DNA of 64,000 bases from Herpetosiphon aurantiacus DSM 785. Its GTDB lineage: Bacteria > Chloroflexota > Chloroflexia > Chloroflexales > Herpetosiphonaceae. Where the stretch lies: the NCBI GenBank assembly GCA_000018565.1, contig CP000875.1, forward strand, positions 505,199-569,198. Reading direction: 5' to 3'. Every line of letters starts with the position of its first letter. The first letter of the stretch is position 1. Under the pieces are notes generated by a model. The model saw nothing but the letters and a program-made list of their open reading frames with translations, was not told where the DNA came from and ran no database searches. This document shows positions 7,517-24,017 of the stretch, in pieces. Position numbers and translations under genes: made by a program.

Positions 7517-7735
7517 AAATCTTTCCTTACACACTAAACGAATAACGCTCAGCATCACGCTATAAGGAAGAGTTGCCAGACCCCTCCCGATGCTGCCTAA
7601 TCCTCGCTCACCAGAGTTTCTCTCCGACCCGCGTTGCCAACCTCCCAAAAGCACTAGATGATCATATCAGCAATAGCGTTTGGCGATTATAGCGCATTCT
7701 GGCCAAAATGTGCATAGATCTTAAGATCGAGTTAT

Positions 7736-7760
7736 CTCAAAAATTGGGCCAATTTTTGAG
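7736..7760. promoter_or_regulatory. Perfect 10-5-10 palindrome ctcaaaaatt-gggcc-aatttttgag between the divergent protease and hrcA genes
   Basis: Exact inverted repeat read directly from the sequence. Confidence 0.4.
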
Positions 7761-7826
7761 ATTTTGTCGCAATTAGTTGTTGCTTTGGCGAAATGTTAGA
7801 GCGATGTAAGAGCTAGCGCTGCCCCG

Positions 7827-7855
7827 TTGCTTGCTCTATCGCGGCGTGTTACAAT
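7827..7855 (+). promoter_or_regulatory. Sigma-70-like promoter of the hrcA operon (TTGCTT-N17-TACAAT)
   Basis: Hexamers with 17-nt spacing, about 45 nt upstream of the CIRCE element. Confidence 0.55.
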
Positions 7856-7900
7856 ATTCAGCGGCGTGCGGCGAGCACGCCACTCTTATAACTTACCGAG

Positions 7901-7927
7901 TTAGCACTCCTCGGCCAAGAGTGCTAA
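7901..7927. promoter_or_regulatory. CIRCE operator (TTAGCACTC-N9-GAGTGCTAA), the HrcA binding site
   Basis: Perfect match to the CIRCE consensus, 14 nt upstream of hrcA. Confidence 0.92.
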
Positions 7928-7940
7928 AGCGAGGTGAGCG

Positions 7941-9005
7941 ATGCATCTTGAACTCAATGAGCGGCGACGACGGGTTCTTAAGGCGGTTATTCAACAATAC
8001 ATCGATACGGCAACGCCAGTAGCCTCGCAAGACCTTGCTAGGAGTTTGGGGGTTAGTTCGGCGACTGTCCGCAACGAAATGGCGGCGTTAGAAGATGCTG
8101 GCCTGTTGACGCATTTGCATACCTCGGCTGGGCGTTTGCCAACTGATGCTGGCTATCGCTTTTTTGTCGAAAATTTGATGGATCGGGCGGCGCTTTCGAC
8201 CCAAGAACAGCGCATGATCCAACATCAGTTTTATCAAATCCGCTCGGAATTGAACCAATGGATTCATTTGGCAGCAGCGGTTTTGGCTCGCACCGCCCAA
8301 ACGGCGGCGGTGGTTACGCCCCCGCGAGCCTACGAGAGCCGCTTCAAACATATCGAGTTAATTTCAATCAACGATGCCTTGGTCTTGTTGGTGTTGGTGT
8401 TGCACGAAGGCTCGGTCAAGCAGCAAACGCTGCCTGCCGACCCCAATACGACCCAAGAGCAACTAAGCCGCATCGCCGGACGAATTAATGAGTTGTGTCA
8501 TGAAGCCTCAGCCAAGGCGATTGCCAACATCGCTCACAATCAGTCAACCAACCAGCCGCCGCTTAGCAGTTTTGAAGTGCTGGTGATCGAGAGCGTGGCG
8601 CGGGCCATGCAACAATTCGAGGAGCATGTCAACGAATTAATTCATCACGATGGCCTGCTAGAGATGTTGCATCAACCAGAATTTGGCCAGGTGACGCGGG
8701 TACGCGAGGTGCTTTCGATCCTTGAAGGCGGCACCATGCTTGAGTCGTTGATTCCCCAAGCCTTGGCTTCGGATGGCGTGCAAGTGATCATCGGTGGTGA
8801 ACATAGCCGCGATGAACTGCGCGACTATAGCGTGATTTTGTCGCGTTACGGGGTCAATGGCGATGTTGCTGGTGTGGTAGGGGTTTTAGGGCCGCGTCGC
8901 ATGGCCTATCCACGTTCCATCTCCAGCGTGCGTTATATTGCTGGCGTGATGAGCGATTTGATGGGCGATTTATATGGCGAACGCAAAATAGAACCATCAG
9001 AATAG
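7941..9005 (+). CDS. hrcA: Heat-inducible transcription repressor HrcA
   Basis: N-terminal winged-helix region [36 protein letters not shown]. Sits downstream of CIRCE and is followed by grpE-dnaK-dnaJ. Confidence 0.95.
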
Positions 9006-9063
9006 TGCTAGACGCTAGGCTGTGATCATACAAGTTTGATCTTTACGGAGGTACGGAGTTCTC

Positions 9064-9579
9064 ATGACGGAAGAAGTGCAAGCACAATCAACTGACGATA
9101 CCAATCCTCAAGGCGATGCCGAAAGCCTGAACGAACGGATCGCCACGCTCGAACGCGAAGTTGAAGAACACAAAACCAACTGGATGCGAGCAATTGCTGA
9201 TTTCAAAAATTACAAACGCCGCACCGAAAGCGAACGCGAGGAGTTGATTCGCAATGCTAGCGCTGGTTTGATGTTGAAATTGCTTCCAGTGCTCGATGAC
9301 CTGCTCTTGGCGATGGGTCAAATTCCCGCTGAAATTGAAAACAATCAGTGGATTGGCGGCGTTAAACAAGTACAACGTAAATTTGAAACGGTGCTTGAAG
9401 GCGCTGGCCTGCAACCAATTCCTGCCGTTGATGAAGAATTTGATCCGAATATTCACGAAGCAATTATGTTTGAAGAAGGCGACGAAGCGCAATCAAACAA
9501 AGTTGTGGCCGAATTACGCCGTGGCTATAAGCTTGGCGAACGGGTCTTGCGTCCAACGGTCGTCAAAGTCGGCAAGTAG
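9064..9579 (+). CDS. grpE: Nucleotide exchange factor GrpE
   Basis: Coiled-coil N-terminal region and GrpE-like C-terminus. Position in the operon. RBS ggagg. Confidence 0.9.
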
Positions 9580-9674
9580 GAGCAACTAGTCAAAGCATCG
9601 TTTTAAGTGGCATTGCTGCCGTGATTGGCCGTCGCTTAGCGATGCTTTGTCGCTGTCTGTGGAGCACGAGCTAT

Positions 9675-11531
9675 ATGGGTAAAGTGATCGGTATTGACCT
9701 TGGAACAACCAATTCAGTGGTTGCGGTCATGGAAGGTGGCGAGGCGGTGGTGATTCCTAACGCCGAAGGCGCTCGCACCACTCCTTCAATTGTTGCCTTG
9801 AGCAAAAACGGTGAACGCACGGTTGGCTTGGTTGCCAAGCGCCAATCGGTCACCAATCCCGAAAATACAATTTATTCGGTCAAGCGCTTTATTGGTCGTA
9901 AATTGGATCATCCCAGCGTCCAACGCGATAAAGATTTGATTCCCTACCGCATGACCAGCGCTCCCAATGGCGATGCGCGGGTCTTGATGGGCGGTCGCGA
10001 TTATTCGCCGCAAGAAGTTTCGGCCATGATTTTGCAAAAACTCAAAGCCGATGCCGAAGCCTATTTGGGTGAGCCTGTCAGCCAAGCGGTGATTACGGTT
10101 CCGGCCTATTTCGATGATTCGCAGCGCCAAGCGACCAAAGATGCTGGCAAAATTGCTGGCCTTGAAGTATTGCGAATTATCAACGAGCCAACCGCCAGCG
10201 CCTTGGCGTATGGCTTGGAGCGCAACAGTAACGAATTAATTGTCGTCTATGACCTTGGTGGTGGTACGTTCGATGTTTCCATTTTGGAGCTTGGCGAGGG
10301 TGTGTTTGAGGTTCGGGCGACCAACGGCGATACCCACCTCGGCGGCGATGATTTTGATCAAAAGATTATCGATTGGCTAGCCAGCGAGTTTCAACGCGAA
10401 AATAATATCGATCTGCGTAGCGACCGTATGGCACTGCAACGTTTGAAAGAAGCTTCGGAAAAAGCTAAGCAAGAACTTTCGAGCGTGTTGCAAACCGATA
10501 TTTCGCTGCCATTTATCAGTGCCGATGCCAGTGGCCCCAAACACTTGAACACCACTCTGACCCGTGCCAAACTTGAGCAACTGACCGCTGATTTGGTCGA
10601 ACGCACGCTCAAGCCAATCAAACTGGCCTTGCAAGATGCTGGTTTGAAGCCAGGCGAAGTTGATGAAGTGATTTTGGTTGGTGGCCAAACCCGCATGCCC
10701 GCAGTGCAGGCTGCGGTTAAAAAATTCTTTGGCAAAGAGCCACACAAGGGTGTAAACCCTGATGAAGTGGTGGCGATTGGGGCTGCAATTCAGGCTGGCG
10801 TGCTGGCTGGTGATGTTACCGACGTGTTGTTGCTTGACGTAACGCCATTGACCTTGGGGATCGAAACCTATGGCGGCGTGATGACACCATTAATTGATCG
10901 CAACACCACGATTCCAACCAAGCGCTCACAAATTTTCTCAACTGCCAGCGACAACCAAAACAGCGTTGAAATTCATGTGTTGCAAGGCGAACGGGCTGAA
11001 GCTCGACATAACAAATCCTTGGCGCGTTTTACCCTCGATGGCATTCCAGCCGCGCCGCGTGGCGTGCCGCAAATTGAAGTTATTTTTGATATTGATGCCA
11101 ACGGGATTGTCAACGTCAGCGCAACCGATAAAGCTACCAACAAAGAGCAAAAAATCACGATCACGCCATCATCGGGCTTGAATGATGATGAAATTTCAGC
11201 CATGATTCGCGATGCCGAAGATCATGCCGATAGCGATGCTCGCCGCCGTGATCAGATTGCGACCCGCAACAAAGCCGATGGCGTGATCTACGCTGCTGAT
11301 CGGATGTTGCGCGAAGCTGATGATAACGTTGATTACACTGCCCGCAACACGGTCGAAGATCGGATTGCAGCGCTACGGGCGGTGCTTGATGGCGATGATA
11401 TGGAAGCGATCAACAATCGTACCGCTGAATTGAGCGTGGCAATGCAACGACTCAAACCAGCGCCCGATTTTGGCATCGAGCCAGAAACGCCGAGCCAAGA
11501 CCACGGCTCCGCCGACGAGGTGGAACTGTAA
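9675..11531 (+). CDS. dnaK: Molecular chaperone DnaK (Hsp70)
   Basis: [22 protein letters not shown], and the full Hsp70 architecture. Start moved to the conserved MGKVIG. Confidence 0.97.
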
Positions 11532-11535
11532 GCGA

Positions 11536-11660
11536 AAGTCAAAAATCTAAAATCAAAAGTCAGAAATCAAAGGGCGAAATACTCCAAAGATTTCGAAAAG
11601 ACCATCGATTCTGACTTTTGACCTTTGGCTTTTGGCTTTTGACCTTTGACTTTTGACTTT
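11536..11660. repeat. Inverted arrays of 7-bp repeats (AAARTCA x5 / YTTTGRC x7) between dnaK and dnaJ
   Basis: aaagtcaaaaatctaaaatcaaaagtcagaaatcaaag ... ctgacttttgacctttggcttttggcttttgacctttgacttttgacttttt. Confidence 0.75.
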
Positions 11661-11676
11661 TATCATAGGGATATGT

Positions 11677-12813
11677 ATGGCAACCGAGGCAAAGCGCGAT
11701 TACTACGAGGTTTTGGGTGTGGGCAAAAGTGCCTCGCCTGACGAGATCAAGAAGGCCTACCGCAAGTTGGCCATGCAATATCACCCCGACCGCAACCCAG
11801 GCAACGTCGAGGCTGAGAATAAATTCAAAGAAGCGACCGAAGCCTACGAAGTGCTTTCCAACGACCAAAAGCGCCGCATGTATGATCAATTTGGTCATGC
11901 TGGCAGCAGCGGTCAAGGCTTTGATCCGTTTGCCGGTTTTGGTGGCGCTGGCGGCGATCCATTCAGCACAATTTTTGATGCCTTTTTTGGCCAAGGTGCA
12001 CGCGGTGGTAGCCGTGGTGGCACTCGCCAAGGAGCCGATTTACGCGCCGACCTCGTAATTAGCTTTGAAGAGGCTATTTTCGGCACCGAAAAAGAGCTTG
12101 ATTATCGTCGGCTCGAATCGTGTGGACCTTGTGGTGGTAATGGCGCAGAGCCTGGTACCGAACCAACTCGCTGCCCCAAATGCCAAGGTTCGGGCGAAAT
12201 GCGCGTCCGCACTTTCCTCAACATGGTCACGGTAACCACCTGTGATCAATGTAATGGTCGCGGCGTGATTATTCCCATCCCATGCAAAACCTGCCGTGGT
12301 GAAGGCCGCGTTCGTGAGACCGTCAAGCGCAAACTAACCGTGCCAGCAGGCGTTGACGATGGCATGCGGATTCGGATTGGCGGCGCTGGTGATAGTGGGC
12401 CAAGTGGTGGCTCAGCTGGCGATTTATATGTCAACTTGCGAGTACAACCACACGATTTCTTTGTGCGCGAAGATAACAATATTCTGTTGCAGCTGCCAAT
12501 TAATCTGGTGCAAGCCGCTTTGGGAGCGCAACTCAATGTGCCAACTGTTGATGGCGATGAGCCATTGAATGTACCAGCGGGCACACAGGATGGCACAGTC
12601 TTTACTTTGCGCGGCAAAGGCGTGCCCTACATTGATTCATCGGGGCGAAATTTGGGCCGCCGAGGTGATCAGATGGTTGTGGTCAAAGTGCGTGTGCCAA
12701 CCAAACTCAACGACGAGCAACGCGAACTTTTCCAAAAACTTGGCGAAACCATGGGTATGGACCATTTCGAGCAAAAAGAGCGCGGCTTCTGGAGCAAAAT
12801 CTTCGGGAGTTAA
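11677..12813 (+). CDS. dnaJ: Molecular chaperone DnaJ
   Basis: J-domain with HPD (YHPDRNPG), a Gly-rich region, and four CxxCxGxG zinc-finger repeats. Confidence 0.95.
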
Positions 12814-12941
12814 GCCATGTTGGTTAATGGGGTAGGGTTGGCTAACTAGCTACCTACCCTTTGCACCTTTGGTTTAACCACTTTTTCACCCATTGTTACT
12901 ACTTGCGATTAAATTCATGGGCAAAAAGTCGATTTTGCCTC

Positions 12942-12970
12942 TTGTAACTCGTGAGTACTTTTGGTACAAT
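12942..12970 (+). promoter_or_regulatory. Sigma-70-like promoter TTGTAA-N17-TACAAT upstream of the zinc-ribbon protein gene
   Basis: Near-consensus hexamers with 17-nt spacing, about 125 nt upstream of the ATG at 13098. Confidence 0.5.
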
Positions 12971-13097
12971 GGTTGCGTTGACATGGTTTGGTTCCTCACA
13001 TTACCTCGGACTGAGTGGATATGCAATCTCTTCCCTGAGCTTCGTGACTCCAACCTGAAACAATTGGATACATTACCATAGTTGGAGAAACAAGCTA

Positions 13098-13511
13098 ATG
13101 AGCTTTACCGACAAGACGTTGAACTGCCGCGATTGTGGCAACGAGTTCGTATTTACTGCTGGCGAACAAGAATTTTACTCACAAAAAGGCTTTGACAACG
13201 AGCCAACTCGCTGTTCAAACTGCCGCCAAGCCCGCAAGCAAAATCGCGGTGGCGGTGGCTACGAAAGCTCAAGCCGTGGCGGTGGCGGTGGTGGTTATAG
13301 CCGCAACAGCTATGGCTCAGATCGTGGCGGTTACAGTTCAGATCGTGGCGGTTACAGTTCAGATCGTGGTCAACGCGAAATGCACACCACCACTTGTTCA
13401 TCATGTGGCGGCCCTGCACAAGTGCCATTCGTACCACGTGGCGACAAACCAGTCTACTGCCGTGACTGTTTCCAAAGCCAACAATCATCATCACGCTCGA
13501 ACCGCTGGTAA
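13098..13511 (+). CDS. Zinc-ribbon protein (FmdB-like CxxC...CxxC at the N-terminus, second CxxC...CxxC at the C-terminus) with a Gly/Tyr/Ser/Arg-rich low-complexity linker
   Basis: CRDCGNEF...CSNC and CSSCGG...CRDC. Tandem 21-bp nucleotide repeats encode SDRGGYS x3. RBS ggag. Confidence 0.75.
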   Translation: MSFTDKTLNCRDCGNEFVFTAGEQEFYSQKGFDNEPTRCSNCRQARKQNRGGGGYESSSRGGGGGGYSRNSYGSDRGGYSSDRGGYSSDRGQREMHTTTCSSCGGPAQVPFVPRGDKPVYCRDCFQSQQSSSRSNRW

Positions 13512-13549
13512 GATTCTTGGGGAATCAATCCTCATTCTTATAAGCAAAA

Positions 13550-13583
13550 CCGCTGCTCTTACCAAAGAGCGGCGGTTTTTTTG
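13550..13583 (+). terminator. Rho-independent terminator
   Basis: GC-rich hairpin ccgctgctctt/aagagcggcgg followed by a run of 7 T. Confidence 0.75.
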
Positions 13584-13755
13584 TGATCCTCACAACTTCA
13601 AGATAGTTCTTTAGTACGGATCACGGAGTAGTACTAGTGCTATCCTCGATTAGCTGCGTTATACTATAGCCCATACTATTTAACACTTTTTAGCCTGATT
13701 CTTAGAACAATAAAGCCTGTTTGTAATGGTTTATCGTATGAACAACGGCCAGCGC

Positions 13756-13859
13756 TCCCTCACCCCCAGCCCCCCCTCTCCCGTACGCGAGGCGAGGGGG
13801 AACCGCTCCAGCAGTGCTCCCCTCGCCCGCCTCCGTGGGAGAGGGGCTGGGGGTGAGGG
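13756..13859. repeat. G-rich palindromic intergenic element (family copy 1)
   Basis: ccctcacccccagccccc...gcgaggcgagggg / cccctcgcccgcc...gggagaggggctgggggtgaggg. The two halves are reverse complements of each other. Confidence 0.8.
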
Positions 13860-13941
13860 AACGGAAACATGGTTGCCAACCCAATGAACCATTACACCTA
13901 TTGGCTAGCTTTGTACAACCTCTTCCAACGGAGGTACTGGC

Positions 13942-14817
13942 ATGCGTCGTGTTTGGTGGGGTGTGGCTGGTTTAGCTCTCATCGGAATGATCACAGTTTT
14001 GATTTGGTGGCTAGCAAAACCGCTTGAAACAACCTTGGAACGTGCCCAACGCACAGGCATGATCCGGATTGGCTATGCCCCCGAAGCGCCTTTCTCGTAT
14101 CGCGATGCTACTGGCACTGTGGTTGGCGAAGAGGCAGTGGTGATTACTTGGGTGATGCAGCGCCTAGGAGTTTCTCAGCTGGAATGGGTGCAAACCGAAT
14201 GGGCCGATTTAATTCCTGGCTTACAAGCTGGGCGTTTTGACTTGATTGCCAGTGGAATGTTTATTACCTGTGAGCGAGCCGAACTCCTTGCGTTTAGCCA
14301 ACCAACCTTTGCCCTCAGTCCAGCTATGCTCGTCGCTAAAACTAACCCATTGGGCATTCAGAGTTTTGCCGATTTTCAGCGGCCAGATCGGCGTTTGGCG
14401 GTGATGCGTGGTGCACGTGAGGCCGAAATTGCCCAAGCCCTGGGGATTGCGCCAGAACAATTATTATTTGTGCCCGATGTGCAAACAGGCTTGGCGGCAG
14501 TGCTGGCAGGCCGTGCCGATGCCTTAGCCTTGACCGATATCAGCATTGATTTGTTGGTATTACAAGCGCCAGATCAAGTTGAACGAGCCATGCCGTTTGT
14601 GCCACCAATTATTGATGGAAATTTAAGTATTGGCTATGGAGCCTTTGCGATGCGTCATAAGGATGCACATTTGCGCACAGCAATTGATCAACAGTTGATT
14701 GGATTTATTGGCAGTGACGAACATTATGGCTTAATTGCGCCGTTTGGGTTTTCGCGCGAGCAATTGCCCAATCGTTCAACCGCCAGTCTGCTCCAAGGTT
14801 GTGAGAATGGCTCATGA
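13942..14817 (+). CDS. Membrane-anchored periplasmic substrate-binding domain protein (family 3 SBP-like), probably a sensor partner
   Basis: N-terminal TM segment, then an SBP-like domain. ATGA overlap with the downstream histidine kinase. Confidence 0.6.
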   Translation: MRRVWWGVAGLALIGMITVLIWWLAKPLETTLERAQRTGMIRIGYAPEAPFSYRDATGTVVGEEAVVITWVMQRLGVSQLEWVQTEWADLIPGLQAGRFDLIASGMFITCERAELLAFSQPTFALSPAMLVAKTNPLGIQSFADFQRPDRRLAVMRGAREAEIAQALGIAPEQLLFVPDVQTGLAAVLAGRADALALTDISIDLLVLQAPDQVERAMPFVPPIIDGNLSIGYGAFAMRHKDAHLRTAIDQQLIGFIGSDEHYGLIAPFGFSREQLPNRSTASLLQGCENGS

Positions 14818-16955
14818 AGCGTTTTGCTTGGTTGCGGCGCAAAGAATTACGCCCATTAATCGCTTTATTGAGTGTGGCTTTAGTTTCGATTGCCCTGTTG
14901 CAATGGAATTATTACCAAATGCGCTCGATGATTCAATCGCAAATCACGGCGTTTAATGGGATGACTCAAGCCCGTTTGAATATGAAACGTGGCTATTTGA
15001 TTGCTGAGCAGGTATTAAATGGCAACCAAACCCTGCTGCCCCAAGATGCAATTGCCTATCTTGATCAGGCGATTTTGGCGGTTGATGATTGGCAGCAAGG
15101 TAAAAATCCCGTTGTAGTCTTTGATCAATTGTTGCCGCCAGATCCACCAACGCAGCAAGCGCTCACTGACTATCGCCAGCATTTGGTCAGCTTTCGAGCC
15201 TTATTATTGCAACATCTCAATCGCCCACAAGAGCAAGCCCAAACCACGATTGATCGCCGAATTGCCTTCTCAGAGTTGGAATCTGAAGCTGAGCAGTTGG
15301 AAAATCGTTTATACCTTGATTTGGAATTATCAATTAAACGGCAGGCCGAGCGCTATTCGTTGATGTTGGTTGGCTGGCTGATTTTCTTGGTGATTATTGC
15401 GGGAGTTGTCTATCGTTTGTTGGGTTTGCAGCGCTTGGCGGTGGCTCAATTGGCCGCCAGCGAAAAACAATTTCGAGCGCAATATCGTGGCATTCCAATT
15501 CCAACCTATACATGGCGTTGTATTGACGACGATTTTATTCTCGAAGGTTTTAACGATGCAGCGATGATTATTACCCAAGGAGCAATTACCAAATTTGTCA
15601 ATCAATCAGCTAGAATTGTCTATCGCAATGAGCCAGAGATTTTACACCATTTTGAGCGTTGTCAACGTGAAAAAATAACACTTCATCAAGAAATTCGCTA
15701 TGAGTTTAAATTAATCAATCAAGTTAAAGATTTGTATGTGAGCTATGTGTTTATCGAACCAGATTTTATTATGGTGCATACCGAAGATCGAACTGATCGC
15801 AATCAGTTGCAAATGCAATTAATTCGTGCCCAGAAAATGGAAAGTATTGGGCGCTTGGCTGGTGGGGTAGCTCACGATTTCAATAATTTGTTAACTGCAA
15901 TTAGCGGTTATACAACCTTGGCGATTGATAGTGCTCAGCAAGGCTTTCCGGTGGTCGAAGAATTAACTGAAATTCAACATGCCACTGATCGAGCAGCAAT
16001 GCTTACCAGTCAATTATTAACCTTTGCACGTAAGCAGCAAATCCAACCAAAAATTGTCAATATCAACGATTTAATTATGTCGATGGAGAAATTGATTAGA
16101 CGAGTTTTACCAGAATCAATTCAATGGCGAACTGTACTTAATGTTAATATTGATTTAGTTTTGGCTGATATCGGCCAGATTGAGCAAGTATTATTGAATT
16201 TAGTAGTCAATGCGCGTGATGCTATGCCTCAGGGTGGAAATTTGCTGGTTGAAACAAATAATGTTGCAGTTGATGCAAATTATGCACGAACTCATATTGA
16301 TGTACCAATTGGCAATTATGTTTTATTCGCGGTGAGCGATACCGGCATCGGCATGACCCAAGAAGTCCAGAGTCGGGCATTTGAGCCATTTTTTACCACT
16401 AAAAGCGATCACGAAGGTACTGGTTTGGGTTTAGCCACCTGTTATGGCATTATCAAGCAACATGGCGGCCATATTGGTTTGTATAGCGAAGTTAATCATG
16501 GCACGACGATTAAAATTTATTTGCCACGTTCAGAGCAAGCTCAACTCGATGATGCTCCAAGCCTCATCCAAAACTTACCTCGTGGCACGGAAACGATTTT
16601 GGTGAGCGAGGATGAGCCGCAGGTACGGGCGGTTTTGGTGCGGATGCTCCAAGGCTTGGGCTATAGCGTGCTCGAAGCACTGCATGGCTCCGAGGCCTTG
16701 GCCTTGCTCCAAGCCCAGGCGCTTGGCACAATTCAGCTCTTAATTACTGATATGGTTATGCCACAAATGGGTGGTTTTGAGCTGAGCCAACGGGTTGCTG
16801 AGCTTGATCCTCAGCTCAAAATTTTGTTTATTTCGGGCTACTCCGAGCATAGTTTGGCGCAACATCAGCAATTAGCCCAACAGCCTTTGTTGCTGAGCAA
16901 GCCATTTTCACTGGCTACTTTGGCGCAAACAGTCCGCAAGGTGCTGGATGATTAG
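14814..16955 (+). CDS. Hybrid sensor histidine kinase / response regulator
   Basis: TM segments. HisKA H-box AHDFNNLLTAISGY. HATPase N/G boxes (NARDAM, DTGIGM, GTGLGL). C-terminal receiver (LLITDMVMP). Confidence 0.9.
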   Translation: MKRFAWLRRKELRPLIALLSVALVSIALLQWNYYQMRSMIQSQITAFNGMTQARLNMKRGYLIAEQVLNGNQTLLPQDAIAYLDQAILAVDDWQQGKNPVVVFDQLLPPDPPTQQALTDYRQHLVSFRALLLQHLNRPQEQAQTTIDRRIAFSELESEAEQLENRLYLDLELSIKRQAERYSLMLVGWLIFLVIIAGVVYRLLGLQRLAVAQLAASEKQFRAQYRGIPIPTYTWRCIDDDFILEGFNDAAMIITQGAITKFVNQSARIVYRNEPEILHHFERCQREKITLHQEIRYEFKLINQVKDLYVSYVFIEPDFIMVHTEDRTDRNQLQMQLIRAQKMESIGRLAGGVAHDFNNLLTAISGYTTLAIDSAQQGFPVVEELTEIQHATDRAAMLTSQLLTFARKQQIQPKIVNINDLIMSMEKLIRRVLPESIQWRTVLNVNIDLVLADIGQIEQVLLNLVVNARDAMPQGGNLLVETNNVAVDANYARTHIDVPIGNYVLFAVSDTGIGMTQEVQSRAFEPFFTTKSDHEGTGLGLATCYGIIKQHGGHIGLYSEVNHGTTIKIYLPRSEQAQLDDAPSLIQNLPRGTETILVSEDEPQVRAVLVRMLQGLGYSVLEALHGSEALALLQAQALGTIQLLITDMVMPQMGGFELSQRVAELDPQLKILFISGYSEHSLAQHQQLAQQPLLLSKPFSLATLAQTVRKVLDD

Positions 16956-17041
16956 AGCGAATTAAGCCACAGATTGACACAGATGGTTAGGATTTGTTTT
17001 TGCATACTAACGATTCAATAGTTGTACCTACAAGCGGTTTT

Positions 17042-17067
17042 GCCACGAATTGCACGAATTACACGAA
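17042..17067 (-). repeat. TTCGTGNNN x3 tandem 9-mer repeat (minus-strand orientation)
   Basis: cacgaattgcacgaattacacgaa is the reverse complement of ttcgtgtaattcgtgcaattcgtg. Confidence 0.7.
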
Positions 17068-17114
17068 CTAATTTAAGCCTAAAACCCAATAAAATAATCC
17101 ACAAATTGAAATTT

Positions 17115-17176
17115 AGGGGGTGCAGGGGGATGAAAACACCCTGCGTTCCCCGCCTTGAGGCGGGGCGGAGGGGTGG
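17115..17176. repeat. G-rich palindromic element (variant copy 2)
   Basis: gggggtgcaggggga..ccctgcgttccccgccttgaggcggggcggaggggtg. Confidence 0.6.
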
Positions 17177-17344
17177 TGATCACGAATGAATATTAAAAAC
17201 TACTACTGTAAGCTAGAACGGAGGGAGAGTGATCCTCAATCTACGCATAAAACCCCTAAAGACTACATGAAATAAAAGCAGAATTGGCAACTAGCCCAGC
17301 TCAAGGTATGCTTAACCAAAAGCAATTTTAGAGGTAGCTGACCA

Positions 17345-17977
17345 ATGAAAAAATACAAACTAGTGCTGTTTGATTTTGATGGAACCTTGGCCGATTCAAT
17401 TCCTTGGTTGGTCAAGGCGATCAACGGCGTGGCCGAGAAATATAAGTTTCGCCAACTTACGCCCAAGGAATTTACCGAGTTGCGCGGCCAAAACCCCCGC
17501 GAGGTGATGAAATATATGCAGGTGGCTTGGTGGAAAGTGCCATTAATTGCCCGCCATATGCGCCAACTGGCCGCCCAGAATATTCGCCATATTCAGCTTT
17601 TCGATGGCATGGAATTGATTTTGGCTCAATTGGATGCTGCTGATGTGCGTTTGGGCGTGGTCAGCAGTAATAGCGAAGAGAATGTACGCCATGTGTTGGG
17701 TGATGCCTTGGCCAATGTGGTTGAGTTTTACGAATGTAGCGTGCCAATTTTTCGCAAACGTGCCCGTTTTGAGCGAATTGTGCGCAAAGCTAACCTTGAG
17801 CGCGAAAAAATTCTATGCGTTGGCGATGAGATTCGCGATGCTGAGGCGGCCAAGCAAGCTCAATTGGCCTTTGGTGCGGTGGGCTGGGGCATGAGCCGCA
17901 TTCAAGATTTTGCCCCCTATGCGCCGCGCGAAGTGTTTTTTCAGGTTTCCGATATTGCCACCCGCCTGATCGATTGA
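17345..17977 (+). CDS. HAD-superfamily hydrolase (phosphoglycolate phosphatase-like)
   Basis: Motif I LVLFDFDGTLADS. Later GVVSSNS and VGDEIRD motifs. Confidence 0.8.
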   Translation: MKKYKLVLFDFDGTLADSIPWLVKAINGVAEKYKFRQLTPKEFTELRGQNPREVMKYMQVAWWKVPLIARHMRQLAAQNIRHIQLFDGMELILAQLDAADVRLGVVSSNSEENVRHVLGDALANVVEFYECSVPIFRKRARFERIVRKANLEREKILCVGDEIRDAEAAKQAQLAFGAVGWGMSRIQDFAPYAPREVFFQVSDIATRLID

Positions 17978-18075
17978 ATTGCTGATCGAGCAACCAGATT
18001 TTTCGGTTTTTTGGGGGTACAATACATGTGGTTCAGTACTGAACGGTATTGATTGTGTGTTTTGGAGGAAGCTCG

Positions 18076-18927
18076 ATGAGCCTCGGTTCTCTAACATTTC
18101 GGCTTGGTGGTGATCTCGAAATTCGGCGGTTGGGCTTTGGTGCGATGCGCATCACAGGCGATGGAATTTGGGGCGAACCAAGCGATCGCGAACAATCTAA
18201 GGCGGTATTACGCCGCGCTGTCGAACTTGGCGTGAATTTTATTGATACTGCTGATTCATATGGCCCCGATGTCAGCGAATGTTTGATCGGCGAAGCCTTG
18301 CACCCCTACTCAGCTGATATGGTGATTGCAACCAAAGGTGGCTTGCTGCGCGGCGGCCCGAATATTTGGTATTCCAACGGGCGGCCTGAACATTTGCGCA
18401 TTTCGCTGGAAAAAAGCTTGCGCCAATTAAAACTGGAACGGATTGACCTTTACCAATTGCATCGAATTGATGCCCAAGTGCCTTTGGAAGAATCGTTGGG
18501 GGCGCTGAGCGATCTACGCAACGAAGGCAAAATTCGTCATATTGGCCTGAGCGAAGTTAATAACGAACAATTGGCCCAAGCGCAAAAAGTCGTGCCGATT
18601 GTTTCGGTGCAAAATCGTTATAGCATTGGCGACCACGAATGGGAAAGCATGGTCGATGCCTGCGAAGCCCAAAATATCGCTTTTATTCCATGGTTCCCGT
18701 TGGCGGCTGGCCGATTAACTGCGCCTGGTGGCACGCTTGATCAAATTGCCAAAAAATACGAAGCTAGCGTTGGCCAAATTGCCTTGGCATGGTTGCTCAA
18801 ACGCTCGCCAGTGATTTTGCCAATCCCTGGAACATCCAAAGTTAAGCATCTCGAAGAAAATATGGGTGCTGAAAAAATCGCCCTGAGCGACGAAGATTTC
18901 CAAACCCTGCGCGAGTTGCAAGCCTAA
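18076..18927 (+). CDS. Aldo/keto reductase family oxidoreductase
   Basis: IDTADSYG, LGLSEV and the rest of the AKR fold. RBS ggaggaag before the ATG at 18076. Confidence 0.85.
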   Translation: MSLGSLTFRLGGDLEIRRLGFGAMRITGDGIWGEPSDREQSKAVLRRAVELGVNFIDTADSYGPDVSECLIGEALHPYSADMVIATKGGLLRGGPNIWYSNGRPEHLRISLEKSLRQLKLERIDLYQLHRIDAQVPLEESLGALSDLRNEGKIRHIGLSEVNNEQLAQAQKVVPIVSVQNRYSIGDHEWESMVDACEAQNIAFIPWFPLAAGRLTAPGGTLDQIAKKYEASVGQIALAWLLKRSPVILPIPGTSKVKHLEENMGAEKIALSDEDFQTLRELQA

Positions 18928-18930
18928 GTA

Positions 18931-18960
18931 ACATCAAAAGGCAAAAGTCAGAAGTCAAAA
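18931..18960. repeat. AAARKCA heptamer array (aacatca aaaggca aaagtca gaagtca aaag)
   Basis: Same 7-bp unit as the dnaK-dnaJ intergenic arrays. Confidence 0.6.
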
Positions 18961-19021
18961 GATGGAATATGGCTACTGGCTATGGACTATCGGAACATTT
19001 TGTAGAATTGCCTTTTGTCTT

Positions 19022-19128
19022 CCCTCACCTCCTAGCCCGAACGCGAGGCGAGGGGGAACTTTCCCATTATGAAGGAAGGGTGGAACGCCCCTCGCCCACC
19101 GCCGTGGGCGAGAGGTTGGGGGTGAGGG
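19022..19128. repeat. G-rich palindromic element (copy 3)
   Basis: tccctcacctcctagcccgaacgcgaggcgagggggaac ... cccctcgcccaccgccgtgggcgagaggttgggggtgaggg. Confidence 0.8.
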
Positions 19129-19178
19129 AACGAGACCTGTCTGTTAATCTAATTATTCCATATAGCCCATAGCCACAT

Positions 19179-19203
19179 TTCGTGCTCTTCGTGTTCTTCG
19201 TGG
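19179..19203 (+). repeat. TTCGTGNNN x3 tandem 9-mer repeat
   Basis: ttcgtgctcttcgtgttcttcgtgg. Confidence 0.7.
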
Positions 19204-19442
19204 ATCAACGTTAAAAACAAAAAGGGTAGCGAGGCTACCCCAATCAACCACCACATATCACTTCCACACACTAAAATTCACACGTCGCACCCCTCGCTGA
19301 GTATTGTAGCAACTTCCTACGCAACTGCCTAGCACCTAAGTGTAACAATCAGGTAACAATTGGCTGATAAACGCCTGATGTTGCTCTGAGACTTGTTTTT
19401 TTGGCTAAAATAGCGCTATGCAACAGTTTGGAGGTTTGGGCT

Positions 19443-20132
19443 ATGAGTCGCATCCTGATTGTCGATGATGATCCAGCGATTTTGAGTGGGGTCAGCACCT
19501 TGTTGGAGCAAGCAGGCTATGAGATTGCTCAGGCGGCTAGTTTGGCTCAAGCTCGTTCGCATTTGCAGGCATTTAATCCCCCAAGCTTGGTGATTCTCGA
19601 TTTGATGCTGCCTGATGGTGATGGCTTTGAGTTGTGTCGCCAAATTCGCCAAGGTGGCCAATATCTGCCAATTCTGATGCTTTCAGCCCGCGATGAATTA
19701 CAGGATCGGGTTGAAGGCTTGACGGTTGGCGCTGATGATTATCTGACCAAGCCGTTTGCACCTGCCGAATTAGTGGCTCGGGTGCGGGCGATTTTGCGCT
19801 TGGCGCAACACCAACGTGAGACGATTGGCTCATTCGAATGCGGCAAATTGCGCTTCGATTGCGAATTACAACGCGCTTGGTGGGATGAGCAATTACTCGA
19901 ATTAACGCCTAAAGAAAGCGGAGTTTTGTTACAGCTGATGCGTCAGCCGAGCCATGTTTGGGGGCGTTTGGCCTTGCTCCAAACCGTTTGGGGCACAAAT
20001 TTCTTGGGCGATTCGCGGATTGTTGATGTGTGTGTGCAACGCTTACGTGCTAAAATCAACCAACTTGATGCGAATGCCGACCCGATTCAGACCGTGCGTG
20101 GTTTTGGCTATCGGTTAAAGTGTGAGCCATGA
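19443..20132 (+). CDS. OmpR-family response regulator (receiver plus winged-helix DNA-binding domain)
   Basis: ILIVDDD, the phospho-acceptor D in VILDLMLPDGDG, and a C-terminal wHTH (VRGFGYRL). RBS ggagg. Confidence 0.9.
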   Translation: MSRILIVDDDPAILSGVSTLLEQAGYEIAQAASLAQARSHLQAFNPPSLVILDLMLPDGDGFELCRQIRQGGQYLPILMLSARDELQDRVEGLTVGADDYLTKPFAPAELVARVRAILRLAQHQRETIGSFECGKLRFDCELQRAWWDEQLLELTPKESGVLLQLMRQPSHVWGRLALLQTVWGTNFLGDSRIVDVCVQRLRAKINQLDANADPIQTVRGFGYRLKCEP

Positions 20133-20941
20133 TTGTTCTACCGCTCAAATCGTTGCTTTTTGGAATTTTATTGCTACTGTGGCTGGTTGCCAGCTTTGCT
20201 TGGTGGCTTGGTCAGCGTGGCAAACGCCCCATTATCCAACATAGCGCCGATCCATTATTGCGCCAACAAATTGCTCAGCATCGCGCCTTTATTGGCACGC
20301 TTTCGCATGAATTACGCACACCATTAACCGCTCTTTTGGCGCATACCGCAATTGTGCACAACCAACAAAGCGAGCCAGCCGTGCGCGAACATTCGTTGCT
20401 CACCTTGGAGCGTGAAGCTCAACGTATGGCTCGCTTGGTACGCGATTTGTTGGAATTGCACCGTTTGGAATTAAGCGATGAATTGCCCTTGGTTCCGGTG
20501 AATGTGGCGTTGTTGGCCGAAGAAGCGATTGCCAGCGTGTGGGTGATGGCCGATGAAGCCCAAATTGAACTGCAATTCGAGGCTGACCCAACCCATCAGC
20601 GAGTTTTGGCGCATCCTGATCGCTTAAAACAAGTCTGGCTCAATTTGTTGATGAATTGTTTGCGCTATTGTCGTGCAGGCGATCTGGTGATTGTGCGGGT
20701 GCTGGCGAGTGAGCAAGGGTTACGTTGTAGCATTGAAGATAGTGGGCCTGGGATTGCTGCCACTGATTTGCCGCATGTGACCGAGCCACTCTATCGCGGG
20801 GTCTTGGATAACGAAGGCAGCGGCTTGGGCTTGAGCCTAGTCAAACAGATTTTGGCGCGGCATCATAGCACCCTCCAGATTGAAAGTAGCACCAACCCGC
20901 CAACTGGCACACATATATGGTGGATCTTGCCCTATGACTAA
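20129..20941 (+). CDS. Sensor histidine kinase
   Basis: N-terminal TM segment. H-box LSHELRTPLTAL. HATPase motifs (DSGPGI, GSGLGL). ATGA overlap with the response regulator. Confidence 0.9.
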   Translation: MIVLPLKSLLFGILLLLWLVASFAWWLGQRGKRPIIQHSADPLLRQQIAQHRAFIGTLSHELRTPLTALLAHTAIVHNQQSEPAVREHSLLTLEREAQRMARLVRDLLELHRLELSDELPLVPVNVALLAEEAIASVWVMADEAQIELQFEADPTHQRVLAHPDRLKQVWLNLLMNCLRYCRAGDLVIVRVLASEQGLRCSIEDSGPGIAATDLPHVTEPLYRGVLDNEGSGLGLSLVKQILARHHSTLQIESSTNPPTGTHIWWILPYD

Positions 20942-22337
20942 ATTGCGGTGGCTTAGCCTGCTCATTCTTGGTTCGATCATCTACTGGCTTTTGCCAATCG
21001 ACGGCAATTTAGTGCTTCAGACCAACCAACAAGCTGGTTGGCCCCAAATTTGGTTTGAACGCGATACCCAAGATCAACAATGGATTTATGTGCGCGATAA
21101 TCAGCCATGGGTTTATGTCGCTTTGACGCTTGATGGCACGAGTTTACAGCGTGATCAGCAATTTGCGGCTGGTAGTGAGCCATGGACTTGGCGTTGGAGC
21201 AGCACTAGCAATACTTTAACCCAAGCCGATATTCGCTTTTATCACGATTGCGATCGTGGTTGCCAAGAACGTGGCAGTCTGATGATTGGTCAGCCTGAGC
21301 CAACCGCTACTCCGCGCCAAAGTAGCCTGCTTGGCGCAATGTTTGCCAACCCCGATCGCGATTGGCATGGTCGGGCGGCGTGGTCGGTAGATTTGGTGTA
21401 TGCGCTGCGAGCCGATGAGAGCCAATGGAGTGTTGATGCCCTAGCTTCGCGGGTGGCGGCGGCACATAAGGCTGGATTGCGGGTGATTATCCGCGTTGCC
21501 TATGATCAAGGCCAAAGTTTGCCACCAAATAATGATGAAACGGCCTTGGCGATCTTTTTGCGCTTTTGCCAGCGCTTGGCCCACGATCAACGTTTGCAGG
21601 CAGTCTATGGTTATAGCATTGGCAATGGTTACAATAGCTTGGGTGAAAATAGCCTCAGCCAAGAACCGCTGACTCCTGCGTGGGTAGCACGAATCTTAGT
21701 TGGGTATGGCGTTGCAACCGAACGCCACGATAATGTGATTGAAACCATGCGCGGTTTGAATCCCCAATTGAAACTGCTGGTTGGGCCAGTGCGGCCTTGG
21801 AGCAACGAGGCAGATGGCGCTTGGGCCGACCCGTTGAATCAGCCATGGCTTAATTATTTTAATAGTTTATTGGTCTTGCTTGATCAAACGATTCGGAGCA
21901 AGCATCAACAGCAAATTAATGTTGCCCCCGATGGCTTTGCGCTGAGTACGGCTGGTTGGCCTGAGCGTAGTGCCGATCCCGCTCAAGAGCCATTGAATGA
22001 TCTGTATTTGAGTCAATCTGGCAAGGCCCAACGTGGTTTTCGAGTCTATCGCGATTGGCTGACGATTATCAATCGCTACCCGAGCACCGCCAATCGTCCG
22101 GTTTATATCACCGCCACCAATACATTTCACCCAGAGCAAGCACGCACGCCGCTGGAAAATTACCCCAAAGGTTGGCTCAGCAATGCCTTGGCTGAAGTCA
22201 GCAGCAACCCACAGGTGCAAGCCTTATGTTGGTTTGTTGATCAGCCGTTTGGTCAACAATGGTACGAATGGAGCCTGAGCGAACCTCAAGGCAAACTGCA
22301 TGAAGCCGCTCAGGAGTTTGATCAACTGTTGCGCTAG
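20934..22337 (+). CDS. Signal-anchored secreted hypothetical protein (possibly a TIM-barrel glycosyl-hydrolase-like fold)
   Basis: N-terminal TM/signal LRWLSLLILGSIIYWLLP. The ORF closes a large gap. No conserved motif I can name. Confidence 0.5.
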   Translation: MTKLRWLSLLILGSIIYWLLPIDGNLVLQTNQQAGWPQIWFERDTQDQQWIYVRDNQPWVYVALTLDGTSLQRDQQFAAGSEPWTWRWSSTSNTLTQADIRFYHDCDRGCQERGSLMIGQPEPTATPRQSSLLGAMFANPDRDWHGRAAWSVDLVYALRADESQWSVDALASRVAAAHKAGLRVIIRVAYDQGQSLPPNNDETALAIFLRFCQRLAHDQRLQAVYGYSIGNGYNSLGENSLSQEPLTPAWVARILVGYGVATERHDNVIETMRGLNPQLKLLVGPVRPWSNEADGAWADPLNQPWLNYFNSLLVLLDQTIRSKHQQQINVAPDGFALSTAGWPERSADPAQEPLNDLYLSQSGKAQRGFRVYRDWLTIINRYPSTANRPVYITATNTFHPEQARTPLENYPKGWLSNALAEVSSNPQVQALCWFVDQPFGQQWYEWSLSEPQGKLHEAAQEFDQLLR

Positions 22338-22795
22338 GGTTGTGGCTCGATGCTGATCTGCGTTAGTACCGAGTTAGCAATAAAGCATTGCTCATGGGCT
22401 TGATGATGAAATTGCTCAATTTGTTCGCTGCTAGGAGCTGGTTCGGCCCAAATGATGTTTGGGCGGAGCGTAACTTTGGTCATGGCGATTTTGCCAGTGC
22501 TATTTTTGCCCATTTTGCCGCTGGCCTGATCCTGATAGTGCTCGACGACCAAGCCAGCCTCGGCCACAATTGATAAAAACCATAACATATGACAGCTTGA
22601 TAGGGCGGCGATAAATGCTTCCTCTGGATCAACCGCTTGCTCGTCGGAATAGGGCAATGGCACGACGTGCGGTGATGACGAGCCTTTTACAACTTGACCA
22701 CCATCAAAAATCCAACGATGAGCGCGGCTATACTTGCCATCGCTAAATGTTGCCGCTTGCCGTTCCCATTCAATCGTTACCGTGTATTTAGCCAT
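22334..22795 (-). CDS. OsmC/Ohr family peroxiredoxin-like protein
   Basis: Length (153 aa) and the conserved AALSSCHMLWF region typical of the OsmC family. Confidence 0.7.
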   Translation of the reverse strand: MAKYTVTIEWERQAATFSDGKYSRAHRWIFDGGQVVKGSSSPHVVPLPYSDEQAVDPEEAFIAALSSCHMLWFLSIVAEAGLVVEHYQDQASGKMGKNSTGKIAMTKVTLRPNIIWAEPAPSSEQIEQFHHQAHEQCFIANSVLTQISIEPQP

Positions 22796-22814
22796 ACGTT
22801 ACTCCTGAACTCTT

Positions 22815-22980
22815 GATAAGGATGAAGGATGAATTATGTGAAACCGCAAAGATCGCGAAACTTAGCTCCATGATTGCTTAACGATATTCCAAGCTGCCAA
22901 CGAACCTAACATTCGTGTCCTTCGTGTCCTTCGTGGTTAACAATGATCTTCATCCCTCATCCTTCATAATTCATCCTTTG
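22815..22980. repeat. MITE-like unit: imperfect inverted repeats (aaggatgaaggatgaattatg / cataattcatccttcatcc) flanking about 110 bp that contains a TTCGTG 9-mer triplet (22912..22936)
   Basis: Both arms read from the sequence. The inner triplet is ttcgtgtccttcgtgtccttcgtgg. Confidence 0.55.
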
Positions 22981-23078
22981 GTTTTTCCCCCACATGGTTA
23001 CCCTATCGCGGCCATTGTGGAATGTTAATAACTCTGGTACTGTTTTTAATAACGCTTTTATTTTGGAGATGCTGGCAT

Positions 23079-24017
23079 ATGTCCTTAGGATCAGGATCAC
23101 AGCTGAACAATGCTGAACGAACCGAGACATTGCAAGAGCTTGGGCTGCTTGATGTTTCTTTCGACCCAGCTTTTGATCGTTTGACCCGCTTAGCAAGCAA
23201 GGTTTTGCAAGCACCAGTGTCGTTACTTTCGCTCGTTGAACATCATCGGCAATATTTTAAAAGCCATATTGGGTTGGCTGAGCCATGGGCCGAGCGCCGC
23301 GAAACCCCATTAACCCATTCGTTTTGCCAACATGTGGTCAGCAATGGTCAAGAATTAATTGTGACCGATGCCCGCGAACATCCCTTAGTTCACGATAATT
23401 TGGCTATCCCCGATTTGGGCGTGATTAGCTATGCAGGTATGCCGATTCGCAGCGGTGGCCATGTACTTGGCTCGTTCTGTGTGATCGATGGCAAGCCCCG
23501 GGTTTGGACGGCTGATGAACTGGATATTCTGCATGAATTTGCTGAATTGTTGATGACCGAACTCAAACTACGCCAAGAAATTCGTATCCACCAACAGGAT
23601 ATTCGCGAGCGGGAGCGCTTGCAAAACGAGTTGATCGGCTTGCAACAAGCCTTGCTCGATGAGCTTTCAACCCCGCTGATTCCTTTAAATGATCAGGTAT
23701 TGGTCGTTCCATTGATTGGAGCGCTCGATCAGCAGCGTGCGCAACGGATGACCGAGGCGCTATTAACTGGTGTCGGTAAATATCGCGCTGATTTTGTGAT
23801 TCTCGATATTACTGGTGTGCCCGTGCTCGATACCTATGTGGCATCGTTGTTGGTGCAAACCTCGCAAGCAATTCAACTGCTCGGTGCGCGAATGGTATTA
23901 ACGGGTTTGCGCCCCGAAATTGCCCAAACCATCGTCAGCGTTGGCCTCGATTTGCGTAGCGTTGTGACCTATAGCACGCTGCAACAGGGCATCGAATATA
24001 CCTTTCGGCGTAAATAA
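23079..24017 (+). CDS. GAF domain plus STAS (anti-sigma-factor-antagonist-like) domain protein
   Basis: N-terminal GAF-like region. C-terminal LIPLNDQVLVVPLIGALDQQRAQRM...VILDITGV is STAS-like. Confidence 0.65.
   Translation: MSLGSGSQLNNAERTETLQELGLLDVSFDPAFDRLTRLASKVLQAPVSLLSLVEHHRQYFKSHIGLAEPWAERRETPLTHSFCQHVVSNGQELIVTDAREHPLVHDNLAIPDLGVISYAGMPIRSGGHVLGSFCVIDGKPRVWTADELDILHEFAELLMTELKLRQEIRIHQQDIRERERLQNELIGLQQALLDELSTPLIPLNDQVLVVPLIGALDQQRAQRMTEALLTGVGKYRADFVILDITGVPVLDTYVASLLVQTSQAIQLLGARMVLTGLRPEIAQTIVSVGLDLRSVVTYSTLQQGIEYTFRRK

Follow-up and report, generated by a model that had tools for sequence, protein, structure and literature searches.

The subject of this analysis is a 64,000-nt stretch of DNA from Herpetosiphon aurantiacus DSM 785 (CP000875.1, positions 505,199-569,198, forward strand), referred to below as the window, and in particular the 145-nt spacer that separates the end of dnaK at 11531 from the ATG of dnaJ at 11677. 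This spacer is occupied by two facing arrays of heptamer repeats in inverted orientation. The element can be identified with high confidence as a heptamer-array palindrome, and the best reading of the spacer is that of a slippage-prone microsatellite palindrome. As far as sequence comparison goes, whole cassettes are shown to differ between strains whose flanking genes share about 95% identity. Taken as a whole, the explanation that is considered probable on balance is a locus of lineage-wide convergent inverted heptamer arrays, transcribed as a hairpin with an effect like that of repetitive extragenic palindromic (REP) sequences. The predicted effect on gene expression is the tentative part of this explanation.

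The left (5') arm is purine-rich and lies at 11535-11571 (+ strand), where reading of the sequence gives the units AAAGTCA, AAAATCT, AAAATCA, AAAGTCA and GAAATCA. Over the same interval, Tandem Repeats Finder (TRF) reports a period of 7 and 5.3 copies. This arm begins 3 nt (GCG) past the dnaK stop codon TAA (11529-11531). It is followed by a unique 40-nt centre (11572-11611, +; defined by folding and blastn), which forms the loop region and contains a small internal stem, CGAAAT/ATTTCG. The right (3') arm, at 11612-11661 (+), is pyrimidine-rich and complementary to the left arm; its seven units are TGACTTT, TGACCTT, TGGCTTT, TGGCTTT, TGACCTT, TGACTTT and TGACTTT (TRF: period 7, 7.1 copies, 86% matches). 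It stops 5 nt short of the Shine-Dalgarno sequence of dnaJ, with TATCAT in between. The Shine-Dalgarno AGGGA (11667-11671) and the ATG (11677-11679), which together span 11667-11679 on the + strand, were located by sequence and strain comparison and are the only part of the spacer conserved in all strains of the species. An inverted-repeat search returns arms of 45 nt (11535-11579 and 11616-11660) that are 78% complementary and 36 nt apart. A first-pass annotation made from the sequence alone had described five AAARTCA units on the left and seven complementary units on the right, about 40 bp apart and filling the entire 145-bp spacer. Both the sequence and TRF bear out this layout, and the gene ends at 11531 and 11677 agree with it.

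The density of repeats at this site is far above expectation. The 14-mer AAAGTCAAAAGTCA, allowing at most 2 mismatches, occurs 11 times in the window where 0.53 occurrences are expected; none of 100 shuffles reaches 11, and all 11 matches are confined to 11535-11660 or 18937-18957. A scan for similarity at lag 7 finds 4 period-7 arrays against 0.1 expected. Because the 145-nt allele is identical base for base in at least five independent assemblies, it is not an artefact of assembly.

Structure prediction for the spacer RNA, which the first-pass annotation had named as a useful check, yields a single long, imperfect hairpin with a folding energy of -44.6 kcal/mol (z = -4.2; 0 of 200 shuffles are as stable). 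All 9 Herpetosiphonaceae spacers longer than 60 nt are likewise predicted to form a single long hairpin, with z from -2.4 to -7.9. In these spacers the hairpin leaves about 3 nt free behind the dnaK stop codon and about 10 nt free ahead of the Shine-Dalgarno sequence of dnaJ. The first-pass annotation had offered two readings of the arrays: a large RNA structure, which is plausible and finds support in the common fold of the nine spacer variants, and iteron-like protein-binding sites, which do not stand up to the strain comparison discussed below.

The comparison loci at this junction (L001, L004, L006, L127-L131, L212-L214 and L221) form an allele series. Contigs that encode an identical DnaJ protein split into two spacer types, the AAAGTCA type and an unrelated AAGGATG type. 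Within the AAAGTCA type, the numbers of left and right units are 4/6 in L004, 5/7 in the window and 6/8 in L212, where DnaJ is 99% identical. Length differences of whole units between these haplotypes are the signature of replication slippage. A repeated search for further haplotypes of the 145-nt allele brought up no additional ones. The AAGGATG type, found in L001, L006 and L214, consists of AAGGATG/AGGGATG on the left and CATCCTT/CATCCCT on the right, around a different centre. The two spacer types have nothing in common but the stop codon and the ribosome-binding site AGGGATATGTATG. The nucleotide identity of dnaJ among these strains is 94-97%, and the centre of the window allele differs from that of L004 at about 5 of 26 positions.

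The more distant Herpetosiphonaceae examined have DnaJ proteins 73-79% identical to that of the window. The closest other species (L130, DnaJ 79% identical) carries non-complementary arrays of GGATTAG and TGATTAC around a short stem. In a metagenome-assembled genome (MAG) whose DnaJ is 77% identical (L128), the junction holds a plain perfect 22-bp hairpin, CAACCAGCAAATATCGAACGCC/GGCGTTCGATATTTGCTGGTTG (L128 69-135), with -33 kcal/mol and z = -7.9 and without heptamer periodicity. In L127 and L129 the dnaK-dnaJ spacer measures only 11-12 nt; the lineages without any element have DnaJ identities of 73-75%. The spacer of L131 reads GGGGTCA ... TGACCCC, while that of L213 and L221 reads AAGTATG/AAGTAGG ... 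CATACTT/CCTACTT. AAGTATG is one substitution away from AAGGATG, so this family is probably old at the site. Every examined lineage with a spacer longer than 60 nt has heptamer arrays or a hairpin there, with at least four heptamer families in addition to the plain hairpin. Placement is also regular: the array starts 0-6 nt past the stop codon at 11535 and 18934 of the window and in L001, L006, L130, L131, L213 and L221. The DnaJ relatives recovered from metagenome contigs reach at most 53% identity, which is too distant for a comparison of spacers.

The genomic setting of the element is the operon hrcA, grpE, dnaK, dnaJ, an order taken from the Pfam annotation of identical public contigs. The dnaK gene (9675-11531, +; PF00012 HSP70) has 618 aa as called in public assemblies, with the open reading frame (ORF) open from 9621; dnaJ (11677-12813, +) encodes 378 aa with PF00226, PF00684 and PF01556. 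A CIRCE operator (controlling inverted repeat of chaperone expression), TTAGCACTC-N9-GAGTGCTAA, is present at 7901-7927 (+), 14 nt upstream of hrcA, with 0 mismatches where 0.01 such matches are expected. This perfect match indicates that this Chloroflexota genome possesses the classical HrcA/CIRCE heat-shock circuit. The taxonomic placement agrees with that of MAG GCA_020161265.1, which has an identical DnaJ protein and was assigned to Herpetosiphon (Chloroflexota) in PMC9723799. An Rfam scan of the whole window returns no family at gathering score.

Because the element lies inside the CIRCE/HrcA-controlled hrcA-grpE-dnaK-dnaJ operon, it is expected to be transcribed. The transcribed spacer would then form an imperfect, roughly 45-bp hairpin of about -43 kcal/mol directly 3' of the dnaK stop codon. 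Its effect would be independent of sequence and could consist of REP-like protection of the 3' end of the hrcA-grpE-dnaK transcript, a barrier to read-through, or both. The predicted outcome is a lowered expression of dnaJ relative to dnaK, with dnaJ retaining its own exposed Shine-Dalgarno sequence.

Heptamer arrays are not restricted to this junction. They are present in 3 of the 25 intergenic gaps of at least 89 nt in the window and at about 3 of its ~62 gene junctions. A second array of the AAAGTCA family (AAAGGCA AAAGTCA GAAGTCA AAAG) lies at 18934-18961 (+) and begins 3-6 nt after the stop codon of an aldo/keto reductase gene. It is a lone arm, and its spacer contains no complementary TGACTTT partner. 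The recurrence that had been claimed at 18931-18960 therefore holds for the heptamer array and not for the inverted architecture. In the same spacer, at 18970-19175 (+), an inverted pair of heptamer arrays, TGGCTAC TGGCTAT GGACTAT ... ATAGCCC ATAGCCA (14-nt arms, 93% complementary), surrounds a GC-rich dispersed element. An element of the AAGGATG family at 22818-22978 (+) is composed of AAGGATG AAGGATG AATTATG, a 108-nt centre and CTTCATC CCTCATC CTTCATA ATTCATC; situated between divergent genes, it is an exception to the placement after stop codons. In this element the variant unit AATTATG is mirrored by CATAATT (22825/22965; 14 nt, 100% complementary). Mirrored variants also occur elsewhere, namely AAGTAGG/CCTACTT in L221 and AGGGATG/CATCCCT in L001. 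Mirror-image units of this kind suggest that the arms begin as inverted copies of each other, and their presence in the younger copies suggests an origin by inverted duplication.

Comparison with related loci extends the picture of exchangeable cassettes. The window and L001 share 93.5-96.4% identity, and each interruption of their colinearity coincides with an intergenic cassette. Downstream of the reductase gene, L001 (~17430-17590) has GGGGTCA...TGACCCC instead of the AAAGTCA array. L006 combines AAGGATG at dnaK-dnaJ with AAAGTCA after the reductase gene, from which it follows that the cassettes at these two loci assort independently. In L130, arrays are present in all three operon junctions, and this is the only locus in which the other two junctions carry arrays. 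In L127 and L129, 38 kb contain no heptamer arrays. Further heptamer families are found in L001, L128, L130 and L131, and CTATGGA is another of the families at Herpetosiphon loci beside AAAGTCA, AAGGATG and GGGGTCA. The hrcA-grpE and grpE-dnaK spacers of L130 (2987-3115 and 3657-3727) contain GGGGTTA x3 and AAATCAA x3, together with the inverted pairs CGATAGA/CCTATCG and AGAACAT/ATGTTCT; GGGGTTA and GGGATTA resemble telomere-type G-rich repeats.

Several other repeats were noted in and around these elements. A 9-nt repeat family built on TTCGTG, separate from the heptamers and with three units in each array, is located in or beside heptamer elements: CACGAATTG CACGAATTA CACGAA at 17044-17067 (+), TTCGTGCTC TTCGTGTTC TTCGTG at 19179-19202 and TTCGTGTCC x2.7 at 22912-22935. 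Two of these arrays end in TTCGTGGATCAAC or TTCGTGGTTAAC, and the orthologous place in L001 (~17520-17545) reads CTTTGTGCTCTTTGTGGATCAA. The period-9 arrays number 3-4 against 0 expected. At 13718-13900 there is a 184-nt GC-rich palindromic element (…CCCTCACCCCCAGCCCC…GGGGCTGGGGGTGAGGG…) bounded by TGTAATGGTT / AACCATTACA, which is missing at the orthologous site of L001. Partial copies or related pieces of it are found at 19036-19059, 19088-19132 and 44673-44706 and, in L006, at 7968-8063 and 9911-9934. It looks like a small dispersed element resembling a miniature inverted-repeat transposable element (MITE). L001 also has an extra AT-rich minus-strand gene (15108-15601, 151 aa, no Pfam match) where the window has only a 132-nt spacer (16966-17098); this is a strain-specific insertion or deletion of a gene in an intergenic cassette. 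Inside coding sequence, a zf_Tbcl-domain gene downstream of dnaJ contains a perfect in-frame tandem repeat, TCAGATCGTGGCGGTTACAGT x2.5, at 13317-13369 (21 nt, 7 codons per unit). Repeats rich in GGC/GGT at 49079-49377 (periods 9, 15, 24 and 30) and in CAA/CAG at 56225-56308 (21/42 nt) also lie inside ORFs and probably represent low-complexity Gly-rich and Gln-rich protein segments.

Outside Herpetosiphon, searching the GTDB species representatives for AARGYCA x3 yielded at least 120 loci (L007-L126), which give a qualitative taxonomic picture and not counts. Among the matches listed, most belong to filamentous cyanobacteria, Bacteroidota, bacteria of the candidate phyla radiation (CPR) and Acidobacteriota, and there is no Herpetosiphon record. 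A wider search for AAAGTCA arrays had been proposed in the first-pass annotation. Such arrays do recur, at 18934-18961 of the window, in L006 and in cyanobacteria; among the matches listed from GTDB, the genus itself is not represented. In Oscillatoria sp. SIO1A7 and Stigonema sp., [AAAGTCA]n and [TGACTTT]n are separated by 110-155 nt, which is the same frame as in the window spacer.

These loci also reveal a regularity of orientation. They contain 346 heptamer arrays of any sequence, among them 32 inverted pairs, and the purine-rich array is the 5' arm in 27 of the 32. This count is biased by the seed family AARGYCA, and most non-seed families still follow the purine-first order. For the AAAGTCA family, among the matches listed, 19 array-partner matches are purine-first and 0 have the opposite order. 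In Herpetosiphonaceae all 5 automatically detected pairs open with the purine-rich array, as do the pairs read by eye. Purine-first inverted pairs are thus seen in Chloroflexota, Cyanobacteria, Bacteroidota and Acidobacteriota, and published for Xanthomonas. The polarity rule matches the "convergent" orientation described for Xanthomonas; its general form across unit families has apparently not been stated before, at least as far as we have seen. Such a rule constitutes a constraint for any model of the origin of these arrays.

A number of observations weigh against the explanation by a transcribed hairpin with a REP-like effect. Attenuation or stabilisation of the transcript is only what we infer. 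The covariation of arm lengths (4/6, 5/7, 6/8) comes from 3 haplotypes only and would arise by chance about 1 time in 6. The hairpin is not required, because two Herpetosiphonaceae lineages have spacers of only 11-12 nt. RNAs of the + and - strands are equally stable (-43.2 vs -43.0 kcal/mol), so that the strand-asymmetry test is uninformative. The unit variants of the window are transitions that are no longer mirrored and produce A.C mismatches on one or the other strand, including the sense strand. They are not compensatory, and consequently there is no sign of selection on sense-strand RNA pairing. A terminator scan of 7600-23100 calls no canonical intrinsic terminator (GC-rich stem, U-tract) at 11535-11661. 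Finally, the 22818 element lies between divergent genes and the 18934 array is a lone arm, so neither a 3' end nor a hairpin is a constant feature of the class.

A serious rival is consequently a mutational by-product without selected function, produced by slippage and by fold-back or template-switch duplication in a tolerant spacer; it is a real possibility, although the less favoured one. Cassettes are swapped or missing in close relatives, and the divergence of the centre between the window and L004 (~5/26) falls within the synonymous range of dnaJ (96% nucleotide identity, identical protein). The same reading accommodates the lack of compensatory unit changes and of strand asymmetry in the folding of the window allele, as well as the arrays that consist of a lone arm or lie in a divergent promoter region. 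Moreover, Rehm et al. (PMC4692102) were unable to identify a regulatory role of the equivalent repeats in Xanthomonas. What a neutral origin does not predict is the occupancy of this particular junction, which holds arrays or a hairpin in all examined lineages with a spacer longer than 60 nt, compared with ~3 of ~62 junctions in the window, while the other two operon junctions carry arrays only in L130. In addition, a palindrome under pure neutrality would be expected to decay, but the arms are still 78-100% complementary. The persistence at this junction could, however, also arise if existing arrays are preferred sites for replacement by further arrays.

An alternative of much lower probability is a mobile element of the MITE or REPIN type (REP doublet forming a hairpin), inserted between dnaK and dnaJ, with the heptamer arrays as its terminal inverted repeats. 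Such an element would account for alleles that are present, absent or replaced between strains. AATTATG stands beside AAGGATG at separate loci (window 22832, L006, L001), which suggests copying of arrays between loci, and the cyanobacterial L042 and L045 carry the AAAGTCA...TGACTTT frame around other centres. However, a MITE with a conserved core is not what is found at this site. Inverted ends are present, but comparison of the allele borders reveals no target-site duplication, and no transposase or RAYT gene (REP-associated tyrosine transposase) adjoins the element. The centres are unique: in a sample of ~190 kb of Herpetosiphonaceae DNA, blastn with the window centre finds only the orthologous spacers of L004 and L212 and no second copy, and an exact scan of the Joint Genome Institute (JGI) metagenomes for the centre, GATTTCGAAAAGACCATCGATTCTGAC, gives 0 matches. 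The stability of the 145-nt allele in at least five assemblies also speaks against mobility.

It is similarly improbable that the right arm serves as an internal promoter of dnaJ, with TTGACT/TTGACC as a -35-like element and TATCAT as its -10 partner. The promoter scan identifies a sigma-70-like match, TTGACC-16 nt-TATCAT, at 11639-11666 (+), made from the right arm. With 10/12 positions it is the best such match in 7.6-23.1 kb (TTGACC at 11639, TATCAT at 11661), and its geometry is kept in L004 and L212. However, the predicted start at ~11673-11677 would give an mRNA without the conserved AGGGA Shine-Dalgarno sequence, and no such match exists in the AAGGATG alleles of this species. Promoter-like matches show no enrichment (20 vs 17.6 in shuffles), and this one follows trivially from the heptamer sequence. 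It is best treated as an allele-specific by-product that is at most a candidate internal promoter.

Termination of the hrcA-grpE-dnaK transcript by a canonical bidirectional intrinsic terminator is slightly less likely still. Its appeal lies in the A-rich 5' arm, the U-rich 3' arm with UUUU runs and the strong hairpin. Nevertheless, the scan of 7600-23100 does not call the element at 11535-11661, though it does call a textbook terminator after the next gene, at 13546-13579. The base of the stem is AU-rich, the loop or centre measures 40 nt, and GC-rich families such as GGGGTCA...TGACCCC have no U-tract. In addition, full termination would silence dnaJ, which lacks a conserved promoter of its own.

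The purine-first polarity and the mirrored variants could also be the footprint of a dedicated, as yet unidentified DNA process, with dnaK-dnaJ as a recurrent hotspot of breakage and repair, a proposal regarded as quite unlikely. In one candidate process, both 3' ends of a break would be extended with 7-nt repeats, by templating or by slippage, before filler DNA is captured; another would be a fold-back, palindrome-forming activity. Both would differ from ordinary slippage combined with selection.

The weakest reading is the one that the first-pass annotation had put first, namely iteron-like sites for a sequence-specific DNA-binding protein: it draws on regularly spaced short repeats in two orientations and on the same heptamer at a second locus, but fails because the units are 7 nt and inverted instead of 17-22 nt and direct, the neighbours are dnaK and dnaJ with no rep gene or origin nearby and no origin-like switch in GC skew at the site, several unrelated families coexist in each genome, and strains with identical DnaJ carry the unrelated AAGGATG while relatives carry AAGTATG, GGGGTCA or nothing, a replacement that a sequence-specific binding protein would not tolerate.

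With these alternatives weighed, the preferred reading remains that of convergent heptamer arrays transcribed as a hairpin. Its interest lies less in the locus itself, which is an ordinary instance of a known repeat class, than in the material that it provides. The different repeat families, the different copy numbers and the relatives without an element form a natural allelic series in an essential and well-understood operon, in which the role of the repeats is directly testable.

A functional parallel is the heptacistronic dnaK operon of Bacillus subtilis, which is reportedly of the same type (CIRCE/HrcA, hrcA-grpE-dnaK-dnaJ). According to work attributed to Homuth and colleagues (1997/1999), the upstream transcript is stabilised by a stem-loop at the dnaK-dnaJ junction, and this hairpin reportedly uncouples the amounts of DnaK and DnaJ. 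An internal promoter is also said to lie upstream of dnaJ. The B. subtilis hairpin is reportedly a simple stem-loop with no repeat array and no homology to the Herpetosiphon element. Hairpins of REP sequences and bacterial interspersed mosaic elements (BIMEs) in Escherichia coli are said to stabilise the mRNA upstream of them, and REPs also influence how strongly distal genes are expressed. The REPs, BIMEs and REPINs of enterobacteria and pseudomonads (PMC3116915 for REPINs) resemble the Herpetosiphon element in that they are intergenic, often intra-operonic imperfect palindromes transcribed into hairpins. In contrast, REPs are conserved sequences of ~20-40 nt, present in hundreds of copies, mobilised by RAYT and free of heptamer periodicity, whereas the Herpetosiphon element has no conserved sequence. 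Across its spacer alleles no conserved unit beyond the heptamer is found, and the definition of REPs and REPINs includes a RAYT gene elsewhere in the genome. Iterons share only the short repeated units and differ in unit length, context, orientation and sequence conservation.

With respect to the repeats themselves, the short tandemly repeated repetitive (STRR) heptamers of heterocystous cyanobacteria offer a near relative. They were reportedly described by Mazel and colleagues in 1990 in Nostocales, with the units CCCCAGT, TTGGTCA and CAACAGT. Several STRR families occur per genome, in tandem in intergenic or intercistronic spacers and with variable copy number, and small dispersed repeats are said to lie inside cyanobacterial heptamer arrays (Elhai and colleagues, 2008). 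The likeness to Herpetosiphon consists in arrays of multiple heptamer families, and AAAGTCA itself forms inverted pairs in Oscillatoria sp. SIO1A7 and Stigonema sp. The difference is that STRRs are defined by specific units, and the architecture of inverted pairs falls outside their definition. In marine Beggiatoaceae, TAACTGA arrays are almost all direct repeats located just upstream of starts, with 1 inverted repeat among 170 sets (MacGregor 2015, PMC4679880). Abundant intergenic heptamer arrays are thus common to these filamentous gliding bacteria, to cyanobacteria and to Herpetosiphon, but direct repeats at start codons contrast with inverted pairs after stop codons. As reported in papers citing Mrazek 2007, heptamers are the most over-represented class of long simple sequence repeats (SSRs) in bacteria.

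The nearest match is the GGGAATC repeat of Xanthomonas campestris and X. axonopodis, with 183-186 arrays per genome, ~90% of them intergenic (Rehm et al. 2015, PMC4692102). In each of these genomes, 70-75 array pairs are arranged "with convergent orientation". The mean distance of the arrays from the upstream ORF is 28 nt, fewer arrays than expected occur between divergent genes, and most of them are transcribed. They vary strongly at the same junctions between X. campestris (Xcc) and X. axonopodis (Xac), and no function was identified for them (PMC4692102). Both systems therefore consist of intergenic tandem units of 7 nt in convergent order with the purine- or G-rich array first, near the upstream stop codon and variable between relatives. 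They differ in that Xanthomonas has one dominant unit prone to form G-quadruplexes (G4), whereas Herpetosiphon has several unrelated families, most of which are unable to form G4, and belongs to another phylum, the Chloroflexota. Among the papers searched, none links Herpetosiphon or Chloroflexi with heptamer repeats. All five features of the intergenic heptamer SSR class are present at the dnaK-dnaJ junction: at least three tandem 7-nt units, an intergenic position after a stop codon, many loci and families, polymorphism between strains and a convergent purine-first pair. The element adds a local example from a new phylum to a repeat class known from Xanthomonas and cyanobacteria, and it extends these enigmatic heptamer-array palindromes to Herpetosiphon, a genus of predatory filamentous Chloroflexota.

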